A program made the position numbers and the translations under genes. This document shows positions 5,920 through 13,893 of a stretch of 37,909 nucleotides of DNA, piece after piece. The notes below the pieces were generated by a model. That model searched no databases. It was not told the origin of the DNA and was given only the letters and a program-made list of their open reading frames with translations. The stretch comes from a virus. The DNA is taken from UHGV virus genome UHGV-0127965; one strand, written 5' to 3'. Position 1 is the first letter of the stretch, and every line of letters begins with the position of its first letter.

Positions 5920-6888
5920 TTAGTAGGTTATTTTTGTTGCGAATACTTCGCCTTTTACGATGGCTATTATGATATTTTTAGCAACATCTTCTGATGCGCC
6001 AACCTTGATAAGGTCAGCAAGTATTTTGTTATTTACTTCTTTCCGGTGAGCTTTATCCTTTGCTCTACACTCTTCTTCTTCCTTGATTCTTTTTTCTTCT
6101 GCTATTCTGGCTTGCTCTTTTGCTTCAGCCTCGCGCCGGATTCGTTCAGCCTCCTCCTGTGCTTTTCGGCGTTCTGCTTCAATTGCCGCCTGCTTTTCTC
6201 TTTCAGCTCGTTCTGCTGCCTCTTTTGCTTCGCGCTGTGCTCGTTGCTCGGCTTCAATGCGTTCACGCTCTGCACGTTCCGCTGCGGCCTTAGCTTCTGC
6301 TTCTCGCCTTGCTGCTGCTTCAATTTCGGCTTTTGCCTTTGCTTCGGCTTCAGCTCTGGCTTTCTCTTCAGCTTCTCTTTTTAAGCGTTCTTCATGCTCT
6401 CGCTTTTCCTGCTCAGCTTTGAGTCTTGCCTCTTCTCTTTGGCGGTCAAATTCGCGATCCATCAAAATCGCTATTTCATGGTCAGACTCAATTTGCTTTG
6501 CGAGAGCTTCAGCTGCTGCCTTAGCTTCTTCTTCGGCTTTAATCCGCGCCTGTTCTTCCTCATAATCAGTAAGAGGCTGGCGCGCCTTGGCTTTCAGTTC
6601 ATCAAGGCGATCACGCACTGTCTTGCGGTTGGCATCAATTAGCTTTGGAATTTCCTTAAGTTCAGCAACAAGGTCTTTGCCAAGACCATCGAGATATGTT
6701 TTCGTCTGCGCAACTTTATACGCCAGAGAAGCGATCTCCTTTCTGCCCTTTGCCGTTGTGATATCAGGCACAAAGGACATAACTTCACGTTCAACCTTTT
6801 GAAGGATTTCTTCAATCTGGTCGGCAGACTGAAATACAGTCATTGCATTTGCTTTTTCAATAACAACTAAATCTGTTACTTCACTCAT
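5920..6888 (-). CDS. Coiled-coil protein with long E/A/K/R low-complexity repeat, 322 aa
   Basis: GGAGG RBS; structured N-terminal 100 aa then about 180 aa of AEAKA/EEKAR repeats; function unknown. Confidence 0.6.
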   Translation of the reverse strand: MSEVTDLVVIEKANAMTVFQSADQIEEILQKVEREVMSFVPDITTAKGRKEIASLAYKVAQTKTYLDGLGKDLVAELKEIPKLIDANRKTVRDRLDELKAKARQPLTDYEEEQARIKAEEEAKAAAEALAKQIESDHEIAILMDREFDRQREEARLKAEQEKREHEERLKREAEEKARAEAEAKAKAEIEAAARREAEAKAAAERAERERIEAEQRAQREAKEAAERAEREKQAAIEAERRKAQEEAERIRREAEAKEQARIAEEKRIKEEEECRAKDKAHRKEVNNKILADLIKVGASEDVAKNIIIAIVKGEVFATKITY

Positions 6889-7837: not shown

Positions 7838-8105
7838 CTGGATTCTCCTGTCAGTTAGCTTTGGTGGTGTGGTGGCTGGTAGTCTAGCTCCAGCTTGTTG
7901 AGTCTCATTCGGAGGGGTATAACCGGCACCCCAGCGATTTTTCCATGCGACAACGTGCGCGTTATGGCGGCCTTATCGCCCGCGGCTCCCCATCTCGTCC
8001 ACGCTATTGCTAGCGTTGGGAGCGCTTCACCGCTCAACAGTAGGTAAGCACTTGCCAGTGACTAGCTGGCTTCACCACACCCCAAAGCCTTCTGCTTTGA
8101 ATGCT

Positions 8106-8136
8106 GCCCTTCTTCAGGGCTAAATTTTTAAGAGCC
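8106..8136 (-). promoter_or_regulatory. nutL (boxB plus boxA-like)
   Basis: Reverse complement gives GCCCTGAAGAAGGGC (lambda nutL boxB) and GGCTCTTAA, one mismatch from boxA CGCTCTTA; flanking sequence matches the lambda N leader. Confidence 0.85.
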
Positions 8137-8174
8137 TCACCTTCATGGTGGTTAGTGCGTCCTGCTGATGGCTT

Positions 8175-8250
8175 AAAATTACAAGAAAGATTGTATGTTG
8201 TAAACAAGAAAAATTGTAAAAAGAGGCGTGAAAAACAAACTCCGTTGTTT
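8175..8250 (-). promoter_or_regulatory. pL promoter with 434-type oL operators
   Basis: Three ACAA-N6-TTGT sites (8181-8194, 8204-8217, 8235-8248); minus-strand -35 TTTACA and -10 TAATTT overlap them. Confidence 0.6.
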
Positions 8251-8298
8251 TTAAACGGAAAATAGTTTGTTTTTTGGTTATCGAGATTGAGGTGGGGA

Positions 8299-9651
<1,353 letters not shown>

Positions 9652-9659
9652 GACATTCC

Positions 9660-9691
9660 CGCTCTTACACATCCCAGCCCTGAAAAAGGGC
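9660..9691 (+). promoter_or_regulatory. nutR (boxA and boxB)
   Basis: CGCTCTTA (9660-9667) and GCCCTGAAAAAGGGC (9677-9691), as in lambda nutR. Confidence 0.85.
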
Positions 9692-9770
9692 ATCAAATTA
9701 AACCACACCTATGGTGTATGCATTTATTTGCATACATTCAATCAATTGTTATCTAAGGAAATACTTACAT

Positions 9771-10049
9771 ATGCAACTTACAAGTACTCGCAAGAAAGCG
9801 AATGCAATTACAAGCAACATCCTGAATCGAATTGCTGTACGTGGTCAGCGAAAGGTTGCCGACGCGTTAGGGATTAATGAATCGCAAATTTCGCGATGGA
9901 AAGACAGCTTTATCCCAAAGATGGCCATGCTTCTGGCTGTTCTTGAATGGGGAGTTGTTGATGATGAGATGGCGAGACTTGCTCAGCAGGTGGCATCGAT
10001 TCTCACAAAAGAAAAACGCCCAGCTGTTGGTAGCAGTCTGGACGCTTAA
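9771..10049 (+). CDS. cII: CII-like transcriptional activator, 92 aa
   Basis: ...ESQISRWKDSFIPKMAMLLAVLEWGVVDDEMARLA resembles lambda CII; internal ATG of track ORF 9711..10049. Confidence 0.8.
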   Translation: MQLTSTRKKANAITSNILNRIAVRGQRKVADALGINESQISRWKDSFIPKMAMLLAVLEWGVVDDEMARLAQQVASILTKEKRPAVGSSLDA

Positions 10050-10083
10050 GCACACTGTGTTACGCCAAGTAACAGGAGTAATT

Positions 10084-10488
10084 ATGCCAGGACAAACCAA
10101 GCAAGTAAACACCGGCATAAAGGCCGGTGACAAGTTCGAAACCGTATATCCATTTATCTTCGTATGCACAGATTATCAGTCTTATGACGGCAACGTGCAT
10201 ACCGATGAGCGCTGGATTGGCGGTTGTCACAAAAATTATGAGCCAGCCGATTGTGGTTATGGTGATCAGTGTTTTTACACCGCTGATGCTGAAGGAAAGA
10301 GAATTCTTGAGGTTCTGGCAGTGGTGGAAATGCCAGGCAACTGGCAGCGCAGAATCATTTATTCGTGCCACCTCATAGAGCCTGAAGGCAAGGAGAGGAA
10401 AGGAAGGAAGGCTTACACAGTCACCGAATCAAGGTTTTTAAAAATGTCTACTGGTTACTTCGCTGATTACGAAGTAGAGGAGGCTTAA
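10084..10488 (+). CDS. Hypothetical Cys-rich protein, 134 aa
   Basis: Internal ATG of track ORF 9877..10488 with an AGGAG RBS; lies between cII and the replication genes; no family recognised. Confidence 0.5.
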
Positions 10489-10634
10489 TGACAAAACCAC
10501 TCAGTCCTTACCAGGACAAAATTCACAAACACATACTACGTGATCGCTTCCTGTCCAGCTTCAAGCAGCCTGGTCGATTCCGGGCTGAGTTGGAAAAAGT
10601 GAAGCTGATGCAGAAGGAGAAAGGTCATGAGTAA
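10488..10634 (+). CDS. Hypothetical small protein, 48 aa
   Basis: Not in the ORF track. ATG with GAGGAGG RBS overlaps the upstream stop; its 3' end overlaps the O-like start. Confidence 0.4.
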
Positions 10635-11526
10635 CATATCTAATCTAGCCGAAGCCAGAGAGGCCAGAAGGCTACAACAACCGCATCAAAGCAGCGGTAA
10701 GGGGTATGCCTTGCTGCACCGTAAAATTATGGATGTGCCGTTTTACAAGGACGCAGAAGCTGCGCATCTGTGGGTTCACTTAATCCTCAAAGCAAAGCAT
10801 ACGCCTGAGTATGTAATGACTGACGCAGGAGAAATTCTGGTAGGCAGAGGGAAGCTACTTGGCGGTAGAAACTCTCTGGCGTTTGAAACAGGACTCAAAC
10901 CAGATCGCGTTCAGTACCTGCTTAGAAAGTTCAAAAAACTCGGCATGATTGACTGGGTTTCACACGGTAAATTCTCAGTTTTCTCGGTAGAGAAATATGA
11001 CGATTATCAGTCAAATTTTGTACCAGCAGATTACCAGCAAATTACCACCTCAAAGCCAGCAATACCAATGCCTGCAAGCAATACTGTACCAGCAGATTAC
11101 CAGCAAATTACCACAGATAAAGAATATAATAATATTATCTCTAATACTGACGTATTAGAGAGTACCGCAGCAGACAAAAAGTCTGACAAGAAAAAACCTT
11201 CCGTTAGCTGTCAGGATGTTGTCGATGCTTACCACGAAATCCTTCCTGAAGCGCCAAGAATCCGCGCACTGAATGACAAGCGTAAAAACCAGATCCGAAC
11301 GTTCTGGCGCAAAGCCGGAGTGATAACCCGCCAGCTTGACGGGCATGGTTTCACGATGCAGGACTGGAGAAATTATTTGAGCTACGTAGGCGAAAATTGC
11401 CGATGGATGTTCGAAGAGCGCCCAAACCATCAACGCGGAACCGTCTGGCACAAAAAGGGATTTGATTTCCTGCTTAACGATAATACCTACCTGAAAGTTC
11501 GTGAGGGTGAACACGATGACCGATAA
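10627..11526 (+). CDS. Replication initiator (O-like / P22 gene 18-like) with internal origin
   Basis: Positional O analogue directly upstream of the helicase; contains iterons and an AT-rich segment, as lambda O contains ori. Confidence 0.65.
11020..11114 (+). repeat. Origin-like iterons inside the O-like gene
   Basis: Exact 29-bp direct repeat GTACCAGCAGATTACCAGCAAATTACCAC at 11020-11048 and 11086-11114, each with TTACCA sub-repeats, followed by an AT-rich stretch near 11120-11150. Confidence 0.6.
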
Positions 11527-12952
11527 TTTTTATGCGCCGCCCCATAGCATCGAGGCAGAGCAGGCGGTGATTGGTGGATTGCTTCTGGATGATGACAGCA
11601 GTGAGCGCGTCCAGAAAGTTCTGGCGATGCTGAAGCCTGATTCATTTTACAGCCGACCACACAAAATCCTTTTCGAAGAGATAACCAGAATGCACCGGGA
11701 GCAAAAGCCAGTAGATGGCCTGACGCTTTTCGATGAACTGGAGCGTAAATCGTTAACGGCGTCTGTTGGCGGTTTTGCTTATATCGCTGAGATCGCAAAG
11801 AACACGCCAAGCGCAGCAAACATCGTTGCCTATGCAATGCAGGTTCGTGAAACCGCAATGGAACGCTACGCCATCAACCGCATGACTGAAGCGACGGAAT
11901 TGCTCTATTCCCGCAATGGAATGACTGCAACGCAGAAGTACGAAGCTATTCAGGCGATTTTCACGCAACTGACAGACCATGCAAAAACCGGATCGCGTCG
12001 CGGCCTTCGTTCATTTGGTGAGGTCATGGAAGACTGGGTTAGCGACCTTGAGAAGCGATTTGACCCATCAGGCGAACAACGGGGAATGAGCACAGGGATC
12101 CCATCGCTGGACAGGATGCTGTCACCGAAAGGTCTGGTGAAAGGCTCTCTGTTTGTCATTGGCGCTCGCCCTAAGATGGGGAAAACGACGCTATACAGCC
12201 AGATGGCAATCAACTGCGCAGTGCATGAGAAAAAGCCCGCTCTGATGTTCAGCCTTGAAATGCCAGGTGATCAGATACTGGAAAAACTGGTAGGGCAGAA
12301 GTCTGGTGTTAACCCGAATATTTTTTACCTTCCGGCGACAAATGACGCTGATGACGGCTATCAGGGTGATTACGATGGTGACTTCAACATGGCGATCGAA
12401 ACAGCCAATCGCTTGAGTGAAATCGACCTGCTTTACATCGACGACACGCCGGGATTATCTCTGGCTCAAATCGTCAGCGAAAGCCGTCGAATCAAGCGAG
12501 AAAAAGGATGTGTTGGCATGATTCTGGTCGATTACCTGACACTAATGACCGCTGAGAAGGCCGATCGCAACGACCTTGCTTACGGCATGATCACCAAAGG
12601 ACTGAAGAACCTTGCCAAAGAGCTTGATTGCGTTGTTGTGCTTCTGACACAACTTAACCGCGCACTGGAAAGCCGAACCAATAAACGCCCGTTACCAAGT
12701 GACTCACGAGATACAGGGCAGATTGAACAGGATTGCGATTATTGGGTTGGGATCCATCGGGAAGGTGCTTTTGATGACAGCATTCCTCCTGGTGAAACCG
12801 AACTAATCCTTCGTCTCAATCGTCATGGCAATACCGGCACGGTGTATTGCATTCAGGCAAATGGAGCTATTTATGACACAGACCAACAGTCTGCTGAAAT
12901 GCGCCGCCGTGAACGCGAGGAACCGCAGTCCAAGAAGAAAGGAGGATTCTGA
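11516..12952 (+). CDS. DnaB-family replicative helicase (P22 gene 12-like)
   Basis: DnaB-like N-terminal domain and Walker A GARPKMGKTT; start taken at the ATG within track ORF 11501..12952. Confidence 0.9.
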   Translation: MTDNFYAPPHSIEAEQAVIGGLLLDDDSSERVQKVLAMLKPDSFYSRPHKILFEEITRMHREQKPVDGLTLFDELERKSLTASVGGFAYIAEIAKNTPSAANIVAYAMQVRETAMERYAINRMTEATELLYSRNGMTATQKYEAIQAIFTQLTDHAKTGSRRGLRSFGEVMEDWVSDLEKRFDPSGEQRGMSTGIPSLDRMLSPKGLVKGSLFVIGARPKMGKTTLYSQMAINCAVHEKKPALMFSLEMPGDQILEKLVGQKSGVNPNIFYLPATNDADDGYQGDYDGDFNMAIETANRLSEIDLLYIDDTPGLSLAQIVSESRRIKREKGCVGMILVDYLTLMTAEKADRNDLAYGMITKGLKNLAKELDCVVVLLTQLNRALESRTNKRPLPSDSRDTGQIEQDCDYWVGIHREGAFDDSIPPGETELILRLNRHGNTGTVYCIQANGAIYDTDQQSAEMRRREREEPQSKKKGGF

Positions 12953-12981
12953 TGACCATCTACATCACTGAGCTTGTAACA

Positions 12982-13012
12982 GGCCTGCTGGTAATCGCAG
13001 GCCTTTTTATTT
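12982..13012 (+). terminator. Intrinsic terminator after the replication genes
   Basis: GGCCTGC-N8-GCAGGCC hairpin followed by TTTTTATTT. Confidence 0.6.
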
Positions 13013-13041: not shown

Positions 13042-13257
13042 ATGAGTACGATAGCTGAGCTTGTCAGGGCTAATTTTCGTGAAGAGTTGGTGCGTTCGTA
13101 TCGGTATCGTTCATCGTCCAGTTTGCCGATTGATGAGTTGTATGAGCATTCACCTGCTGCACGACGCTATCCGCGTGACCGTGTTCTTCGACGGTTGTCC
13201 AAACTCAACAATGAGTTTCAGCGCAACAGAATTATTCGGAGTCTGGATTTAAAGTAA
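13042..13257 (+). CDS. Hypothetical nin-region protein, 71 aa
   Basis: ATG with GGAGG RBS. Confidence 0.45.
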   Translation: MSTIAELVRANFREELVRSYRYRSSSSLPIDELYEHSPAARRYPRDRVLRRLSKLNNEFQRNRIIRSLDLK

Positions 13258-13267
13258 AGGAGTGAGC

Positions 13268-13474
13268 ATGACAAATCAGCAGCAAATAGAGTTCATCCTT
13301 GAGCAGATTCGAAAAATGCGAGAAAAGAACCAGCCAGACATGATGGAAATATGGAGACGCCAGCAGGAAGAATACCGCAAGCATATTTTTGGTGAGAGAA
13401 AACAGGATGACTGGAGCCTATATGGCTATGGCACCAGGACAAATAAAAACGGATATAGCCTTTACACATATTGA
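13268..13474 (+). CDS. Hypothetical nin-region protein, 68 aa
   Basis: ATG with AGGAG RBS (the track starts at an upstream GTG). Confidence 0.45.
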   Translation: MTNQQQIEFILEQIRKMREKNQPDMMEIWRRQQEEYRKHIFGERKQDDWSLYGYGTRTNKNGYSLYTY

Positions 13475-13482
13475 GGAATTCC

Positions 13483-13893
13483 ATGAAACAGACAATTTTC
13501 CTCAGGAGTAAGCAACAACAGCAAGCCGCAATCACCGCCATCCTCGCAACACCACTCGATAAAGACAAGCCAGTTACCATCCGCATTACTGACTACAAGC
13601 GCAACCTTGACCAGAACGCAAAATTTCACGCGATGCTGGCGGATATCGCAAGTCAGGTTCAATGGTGCGGCAAATGGTTAAAACCAGAACAATGGAAGGT
13701 TTTGTTGATAAGCGGTCATGCAGTGGCAACAAAGCAGGAAGCTGATGTTTTGCCCGGCCTTGAAGGCGAATACGTCAACATTCGCGAAAGCAGCGCGCAG
13801 ATGAGCGTGAAGCGTATGGCAAGTCTGATCGAGTACACAACAGCATGGGCTATTGGTCAGGGTGTCAGATTTACCGACAGGAGGTACGAATGA
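13483..13893 (+). CDS. ninB: NinB (Orf-family recombination mediator)
   Basis: ...[27 protein letters not shown]... resembles lambda NinB; GAGG RBS. Confidence 0.8.

Follow-up and report, generated by a model that had tools for sequence, protein, structure and literature searches.

The early region of lambdoid phages has been described with the layout cII-oop-'orf'-O-P and a conserved junction, lambda being a phage without 'orf' (Hayes et al. 2012, PMC3349717). In the oop/pO system of lambda, the ribosome binding site (RBS) and ATG of the gene that follows cII form, when read leftward, the −10 element of the promoter pO, whose −35 element lies in the first codons of that same gene. The oop RNA is antisense to the 3′ end of cII and ends in a hairpin followed by a U-run. 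In lambda, cII (38360–38653) is followed directly by O (38686), as the original prediction that we follow up here had correctly stated. In P22, the oop promoter and terminator are annotated in the phage record at the same junction, and the gene orf48 (NC_002371, 32349–32495) stands upstream of the initiator; its counterpart in HK620 is hkaW (NC_002730, 9838–9984). Phage HK639 carries, after a cII-type gene, the gene 53 (ADO67736.1), which is annotated as 'unknown'.

Here we analyse a stretch of 37,909 nucleotides, UHGV virus genome UHGV-0127965, whose full length we call the window. It belongs to a P22-like (HK620/Sf6/IME10-type) lambdoid coliphage, with CurroJimenez_Bas106, IME10 and Louie as the closest relatives (~97% identity across 52–61% of the first 25 kb). 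The early region begins with a leftward cI-type repressor gene (8700–9332, minus strand; HTH_3 and Peptidase_S24) and a cro-type gene (9436–9651, plus; HTH_3), followed on the plus strand by the lysogeny activator gene cII (9771–10049; Pfam Phage_CII, E 4.4e-43, profile positions 1–89 of 91), which shares ~92% nucleotide identity with cII of Sf6, HK446 and Dewey as far as position ~10021. Further downstream lie an O-like replication initiator of 299 aa (10627–11526, plus; phrog_345 'replication initiation O-like', E 5.6e-88), a phage DnaB-family helicase (11501–12952, plus; TIGR03600, E 9e-175) and ninB (13471–13893, plus). The original prediction had placed an extra gene pair between cII and the initiator, and relative to lambda two additional ORFs do lie there, with coordinates, lengths and good RBSs that can be read directly from the sequence. 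These are ORF134 (134 aa, 10084–10488, plus; ATG at 10084, TAA at 10486–10488) and ORF48 (48 aa, 10488–10634, plus).

The two ORFs and the initiator are tightly packed. ORF134 is preceded by AGGAG (10074–10078) at a spacing of 5 nt from its ATG, its stop codon overlaps the ATG of ORF48 at 10488 in the form TAATG, with GAGGAGG in front of this second ATG, and ORF48 in turn overlaps the initiator ATG at 10627 by 8 nt (ATGAGTAA), with AAGGAG upstream of the initiator start. ORF134, ORF48 and O consequently form a single chain of overlapping reading frames on the strand of cro, cII and O. Because of this shared orientation, and because no terminator-like site in the rightward direction was detected by a sequence scan of the interval from cII to O, it is a reasonable inference that both ORFs are transcribed early from pR. 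The window has the standard layout cII - oop/pO - orf48(hkaW) - O - DnaB-type helicase, plus one extra gene of 405 bp, ORF134.

Three other features of the early region were noted. Inside the O-like initiator gene we found two 35-nt direct repeats (11014–11048 and 11080–11114, 94% identical) and a partial third copy, which encode a repeated peptide of 10 residues. The ori of lambda is located within O, and by analogy these repeats are probably origin iterons. Directly downstream of the cI repressor gene and on the same strand lies another ORF of 134 aa (8299–8703, minus). Its product begins with a hydrophobic, signal-like stretch and matches nothing in Pfam, and the ORF may be an accessory gene, expressed from the prophage, for a secreted protein or lipoprotein. 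Finally, the helicase gene and ninB are separated by a small early gene of 71 aa (13042–13257) with a match to DUF7301 (E 1.4e-24).

ORF48 turned out to be a well-known gene. Its product matches Pfam PF10872 (DUF2740) over model positions 1–43 of 43 with 99.4 bits (cut-off 27; E 9e-29) and is 98% identical in amino-acid sequence to HK620 HkaW and 83% to P22 Orf48, with a pN/pS of ~0.33 against P22. By these matches ORF48 is the common lambdoid gene known as orf48 in P22 and hkaW in HK620, with an equivalent ORF in HK022. Like these, it has the same length, lies between cII/oop and the initiator and runs with its 3′ end over the initiator ATG in the same 8-nt overlap; in the P22 locus that we extracted, the corresponding pair has orf48 at 850–996 and the initiator at 989. 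It differs from them at its start, which overlaps the ORF134 stop and is not at the oop/pO junction, where ORF134 begins instead. The statement that no family was recognisable therefore does not hold for ORF48. In addition, a match to a conserved lambdoid gene, such as a cIII- or ren-like function, had been named as evidence against the original prediction; ORF48 has such a match in orf48/hkaW, while ORF134 has none to cIII or Ren in Pfam (E up to 1) or NCBIfam, libraries which perhaps hold no cIII or Ren models.

We counted 127 phage records with the orf48/hkaW gene, among them those of P22, HK022, HK620, Stx phages and an Erwinia phage; with few exceptions, the gene is covered by the replication initiator annotation or adjoins it. 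Besides DUF2740, the Pfam scan of ORF48 (E up to 1) gave just a sub-threshold DUF896 hit (E 0.037), and NCBIfam and PADLOC (E up to 1) gave no match. The product is basic (pI 10.1), and a single-sequence AlphaFold model predicts two helices at residues 7–25 and 28–44 (pLDDT 84.8). A literature search on DUF2740 returned no papers and one on hkaW only unrelated ones, the papers on HK639 were uninformative, and what papers on accessory-gene screens call 'orf48' is another gene, gnarl1. Both PHROGs (phrog_1913) and the RefSeq phage records call the family 'tail protein'. This is implausible for a basic 48-aa peptide whose gene runs into that of the replication initiator, and the label looks like a propagated mis-annotation. 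ORF48 is thus the ordinary resident gene and lies outside the insertion; it codes for a basic, predicted two-helix peptide that may be translationally coupled to the initiator.

This leaves the question of whether ORF134 and ORF48 were inserted together as one two-gene module, either toxin-antitoxin-like or two-subunit. The overlap of the ORF134 stop with the ORF48 start and the opposite charges of the products (pI 5.2 and 10.1) would fit such a module. So would the block cII-ORF134-hkaW, which recurs with 99–100% nucleotide identity in two E. coli prophages with different replication genes. The distributions of the two genes, on the other hand, are independent. Among phages, 127 records have hkaW but no ORF134. 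Of the 5,426 complete E. coli genomes, at least 1,261 match the cII-hkaW-O region, with 'DUF2740 family protein' as the annotation of the ORF, and at least 1,259 of these genomes lack ORF134. The DNA of ORF134, even with sensitive blastn, was detected in only 2 of the 5,426 genomes (CFSAN061770 and MS 115-1). In the presence/absence survey proposed with the original prediction, one of its two members is common and the other rare. Conversely, homologues of ORF134 occur with no DUF2740 gene beside them in HK639, in Hafnia phage Meifeng, in most other loci in which the homologue lies at the cII junction (junction-type loci) and in all ~30 loci of the Klebsiella type described below. Furthermore, hkaW retains in the window the usual 8-nt initiator overlap seen in P22 and HK620. 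We consequently rejected the toxin-antitoxin or obligate two-gene reading, which failed the co-occurrence test and which we regard as very improbable; of the supposed inserted pair, only ORF134 is unusual.

The two prophages that carry the shared block give a view of how it may have moved. In MS 115-1 (NZ_CP146665.1) the block occupies positions 12018–12881 of the extracted locus; CFSAN061770 carries it too. The MS 115-1 replication genes differ, comprising a 286-aa initiator and a toprim-domain protein. The near identity points to a mosaic module of ~880 bp, cII-ORF134-hkaW, that would have been exchanged recently.

The insertion of ORF134 can be located precisely. When the window is aligned with HK620, cII and hkaW-O flank a gap that equals ORF134, and megablast against phages and E. 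coli genomes likewise gave two separate matches, to cII and to hkaW-O, that leave ORF134 out. The sequence GGGAGTAATTATG, which is the start of hkaW in HK620, has as its equivalent in the window AGGAGTAATTATG, which is the start of ORF134, while hkaW of the window follows 404 bp further on, behind GAGGAGGCTTAATG. The core of this junction, ACAGGAGTnATTATG, is invariant where O begins in lambda, orf48 in P22, hkaW in HK620 and ORF134 in the window, HK639 and Meifeng. Read rightward, it provides RBS and ATG; read leftward, it provides the −10 element (CATAAT) of the oop promoter pO. Judged from these alignments, ORF134 is a single-gene cassette that sits precisely at the invariant ACAGGAGTnATTATG, a classic lambdoid mosaic junction.

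At the sequence level, the window has the elements of a lambda-type oop/pO system, with a leftward sigma-70 promoter over the start codon and an antisense hairpin with U-run. The predicted pO (10081–10109, minus strand) combines TTTACT (10109–10104), a 17-nt spacer and a TG-extended CATAAT (10086–10081), and a promoter scan gave 9 of 12 matches with the TG before the −10 element. This −10 is the complement of ATTATG and takes in the start codon of ORF134, and the −35 lies in codons 7–9 of the gene. The predicted oop-like RNA (10007–10073, minus) aligns with the oop regions of lambda, P22 and HK620. Its 5′ end adjoins the ORF134 RBS, its terminator would consist of a hairpin at ~10017–10046 and a U-run at 10007–10016, and it is antisense to the last ~40 nt of cII. 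Folding of the leftward strand gave a small hairpin followed by a strong hairpin and UUUUUCUUUU, with a z-score of only −1.5, which is not statistically unusual; Rfam searched with positions 8000–13000 gave no match at E up to 1. The 'M3-like RNA' annotated in HK639 (2931–2990 of the extracted locus) corresponds to the oop-like terminator/hairpin region of the window. One further hairpin, the GC-rich CACCGGCCTTTATGCCGGTG (10110–10129, minus), lies inside ORF134 just upstream of the predicted −35 and scored as terminator-like. It is kept only in the closest relatives and is degenerate in HK639 and Meifeng, and we discarded it as a terminator candidate, since it is probably incidental.

The element that changes with the insertion is the −35. 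It is supplied by O in lambda, by orf48 in P22 and by ORF134 in the window, and reads TTTACT in the window compared to TTGAGT in lambda, the latter taken from the aligned lambda O start. For a wider comparison we used 77 IMG/VR loci, found with an alignment of close homologues, together with the reference phages. All 26 distinct 5′ ends of junction-type genes carry TTTACn, a 17- or 18-nt spacer and CATAAT, TATTAT or TATAAT leftward over the start codon (8–10 of 12 matches). Among the non-junction, Klebsiella-type 5′ ends, no leftward promoter was present in any of 18 distinct sequences, which reach at most 7 of 12 matches. The two types also differ in the number of residues before the conserved GD motif, which is 14–18 in the junction-type proteins and mostly 9 in the Klebsiella-type proteins. 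From this comparison, it appears that ORF134 genes of the junction type use their first codons also as the −35 element of pO.

By homology, ORF134 is a real accessory gene of the HK639 gp53 family. Its product matches phrog_30464 ('unknown function') over 134 of 134 positions (E 2.7e-95), the same profile is matched by all 61 diverse family members that we tested, and the motifs GD.F..YPF, W.GC, AD.EG...EVL...MPG, DPDG and Y..YEV are found in the ORF134 alignments. For this gene, the claim that no family is recognisable was thus incomplete, as phrog_30464 and the HK639 gp53 homologue exist, with no function assigned to them. With HK639 gp53 the protein shares 91% amino-acid identity and the length of 134 aa, and the genes share the same place after a cII-type gene and an oop-like ('M3-like') RNA, ~35 nt of upstream sequence and a stop codon that overlaps the next gene. 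HK639 differs from the window in having a YdaT-type CII analogue upstream and an HNH-containing replication protein downstream, with no DUF2740 gene. The HK639 gene labelled 'cII' (2370–2915 of the extracted locus) encodes a 181-aa YdaT_toxin-family protein (PF06254).

Homologues are few among phage records and widely scattered beyond them. With tblastn we detected ORF134 homologues in seven phage records, with 91% identity in HK639 (twice), 82% in two Klebsiella phages, 78% in Meifeng and 27% (E 6e-5) in two cyanophages. In a large protein collection the family forms 26 clusters at 90% identity, of which the named ones are all from Enterobacterales, and an exhaustive profile search gave 187 representatives at 50% identity, nearly all of them stand-alone proteins of 115–140 aa. 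The family is sparse but widespread, and its genes lie in early regions of temperate phages, of the replication, recombination or nin type. The cluster names of the distant relatives all read 'hypothetical'. One distant member (protein P0073, encoded at 6001–6843 of its extracted locus and seen on five contigs) is fused to an N-terminal DUF3850/ASCH-like domain; its gene follows the recombination genes ERF and YqaJ in the early region of a prophage. In another locus, a second 125-aa gene after DnaB was considered as an ORF134 paralogue and was rejected for lack of similarity.

These data also dispose of the idea that the 134-codon frame is a chance, untranslated ORF. The frame does lie within a longer open frame of 203 codons, and other ORFs overlap it on both strands. 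However, the dN/dS of ORF134 against its homologues is 0.05–0.20, with synonymous sites near saturation, the homologues reach down to the 27% identity of the cyanophage proteins, the family has its 187 representatives, the fold is predicted with confidence and the RBS is strong. Chance is already refuted by the comparative data, and the likelihood that we would still assign to it is practically nil.

The AlphaFold model of ORF134 (pLDDT 84.5) shows seven strands and one C-terminal helix, and the N-terminal residues are its low-confidence part. Compared with the PDB structure set by Foldseek, the model gave nothing significant (best E 0.14), with weak PC4 and SSB matches, and in BFVD it hit one unnamed viral protein, again with no significant match. 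The mostly beta-strand architecture resembles SH3/Tudor-like small beta-barrels: the best partial matches are Tudor, chromo, BAH and SH3-type barrels, and a cyanophage homologue of ORF134 is deposited as an 'SH3 protein'. Sequence searches gave no match in Pfam (E up to 1), NCBIfam, the anti-phage defence profiles of PADLOC (E up to 1) or a PDB sequence-profile search (E up to 10). For characterised anti-defence inhibitors, neither the PDB sequence and fold searches nor BFVD gave a significant match, and ORF134 is absent from the supplementary data of one screen of accessory genes.

The protein had been called Cys-rich, with zinc binding offered as a possibility to be checked by profile search and structure prediction. 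It does contain five Cys among its 134 residues, and C48, C57 and C95 are conserved in the close enterobacterial homologues, which could fit a cysteine-rich, zinc-binding regulatory protein. However, CxxC and CxxH motifs are absent, H49 and H96 vary already among close homologues, where C48 is the sole invariant Cys, and across the 61 diverse members not a single Cys or His is invariant, C48 being replaced by T, V or A. Pfam gave no zinc-finger family at E up to 1, and the structure prediction led to no significant fold match. The description as Cys-rich is therefore weak. We reject the zinc-binding or Cys-motif reading, given that a four-ligand Cys/His set of the CxxC type is not conserved in the family, and consider it scarcely credible.

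The gene neighbourhoods of the family show what ORF134 travels with. In the ~50 junction-type loci, the homologue follows either a classical cII or the gene of a 181-aa protein of the YdaT family (PF06254), and the downstream gene encodes either an O-like initiator or an HNH-containing protein of the HK639 gp54 type. In about three quarters of these loci the ORF134 homologue directly meets the initiator with a −1 or −4 overlap. In the remaining ones a small ORF intervenes: eight loci, among them the window, have DUF2740, one has a weak match to it, and three have an unrelated ORF of 54 aa. In the ~30 Klebsiella-type loci, the homologue comes later in the early rightward operon, where the repressor gene is followed by a cro-like gene, the replication initiator, a resolvase-like gene, genes without assignment and then the ORF134 homologue. 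Distant members adjoin genes for DnaB, ERF/YqaJ, NinB, NinG, DUF968, DUF1064, DUF1367, AAA_24/HNH and helicase/primase proteins. ORF134 is accordingly always an early gene with no fixed partner, and it is missing from almost every phage that shares the backbone. In this it resembles the genes of the lambdoid nin region and other small early accessory genes. These are likewise short and dispensable, occur in some phages and not in others, and stand close together in the early rightward operon, where stops overlap starts; indeed, family members elsewhere are found among NinB, NinG and DUF968 genes. ORF134 differs from the nin genes in its place upstream of the replication genes at the cII junction, and it matches no named nin family.

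What the protein does has to be judged from its conservation pattern and gene context, as we found no experiment or homology that ties the family to any function. Only P23, G47, G71 and R90 are invariant in the 61 diverse members, with aromatics nearby. Since this set holds no catalytic-type constellation, and since the protein is acidic, we infer that ORF134 is a non-enzymatic early protein that acts by binding and not by catalysis; the family-library searches gave no enzyme-family match. A component of the host is the most likely binding partner. ORF134 would then be a dispensable accessory protein that binds this component within minutes of the onset of lytic growth, serves host take-over or counter-defence, and needs no specific phage partner. 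The steady replication/recombination neighbourhood counts against this reading insofar as it fits a role in DNA metabolism equally well.

The main competitor is that ORF134 is a replication or recombination helper, a small beta-barrel made together with the initiator that binds ssDNA or a component of the replisome or recombination machinery. This would explain why the stop codon in junction-type loci overlaps the start of the initiator or of hkaW-O, with the direct −1/−4 contacts to the initiator in about three quarters of them, and why other members lie beside DnaB, ERF/YqaJ, NinB, NinG, resolvase-like and helicase/primase genes. The weak fold matches, which include Tudor/SH3-like barrels, PC4 and SSB proteins, point in the same direction, as does the one member fused to the DUF3850/ASCH domain, labelled RNA-binding protein in PHROGs. 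However, at least three unrelated types of initiator are found alongside ORF134, and nearly all phages with the same initiators lack it. A pI of 5.2 is unusual for a nucleic-acid binder. Gene neighbourhood is moreover weak evidence, because accessory genes of many unrelated kinds are found in the early regions of temperate phages. We regard the helper role as unlikely, though as a rival to be taken seriously.

We favour the host-binding reading and, taken as a whole, the following explanation seems to us the probable one, by a modest measure. The window has the standard lambdoid layout, with ORF134 as a cassette at the cII junction that takes over the RBS and ATG of the junction. ORF134, hkaW and O would be read off the early rightward pR transcript. 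At cII junctions, the first codons of the cassette would bring along the −35 element (TTTACn), so that the antisense control of cII could stay intact, and the encoded protein would serve as the host-binding accessory protein. A more far-reaching version is that ORF134 is the founder of a family of early proteins with a new fold that neutralise a host factor, either a defence system or a protein of DNA metabolism, by binding it directly, and that the N-terminal extension of the junction-type members doubles as the oop −35. This we put forward as a tentative idea, which we would not expect to hold in full.

In summary, the insertion in the window is ordinary lambdoid mosaicism around one uncharacterised orphan gene, and the current understanding of lambdoid phages is unchanged by it. 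For annotation, the known gene orf48/hkaW is now separated from a single unusual gene, the zinc idea is removed and the 'tail protein' label has become doubtful. ORF134 itself is a well-defined early gene; the structure of its product is predicted with confidence, and no relatives of assigned function are recognisable. The same cII-hkaW-O region exists with and without ORF134, and these natural isogenic comparisons make the gene an easy target for host take-over or counter-defence screens. The placement of the start codon and first codons over the oop promoter illustrates how a cassette may enter a lambdoid mosaic junction while the regulatory RNA is spared. If the new-fold family and its dual-use extension were true, one short stretch of DNA would serve at once as RBS and start, as coding sequence and as promoter of the RNA that controls cII.
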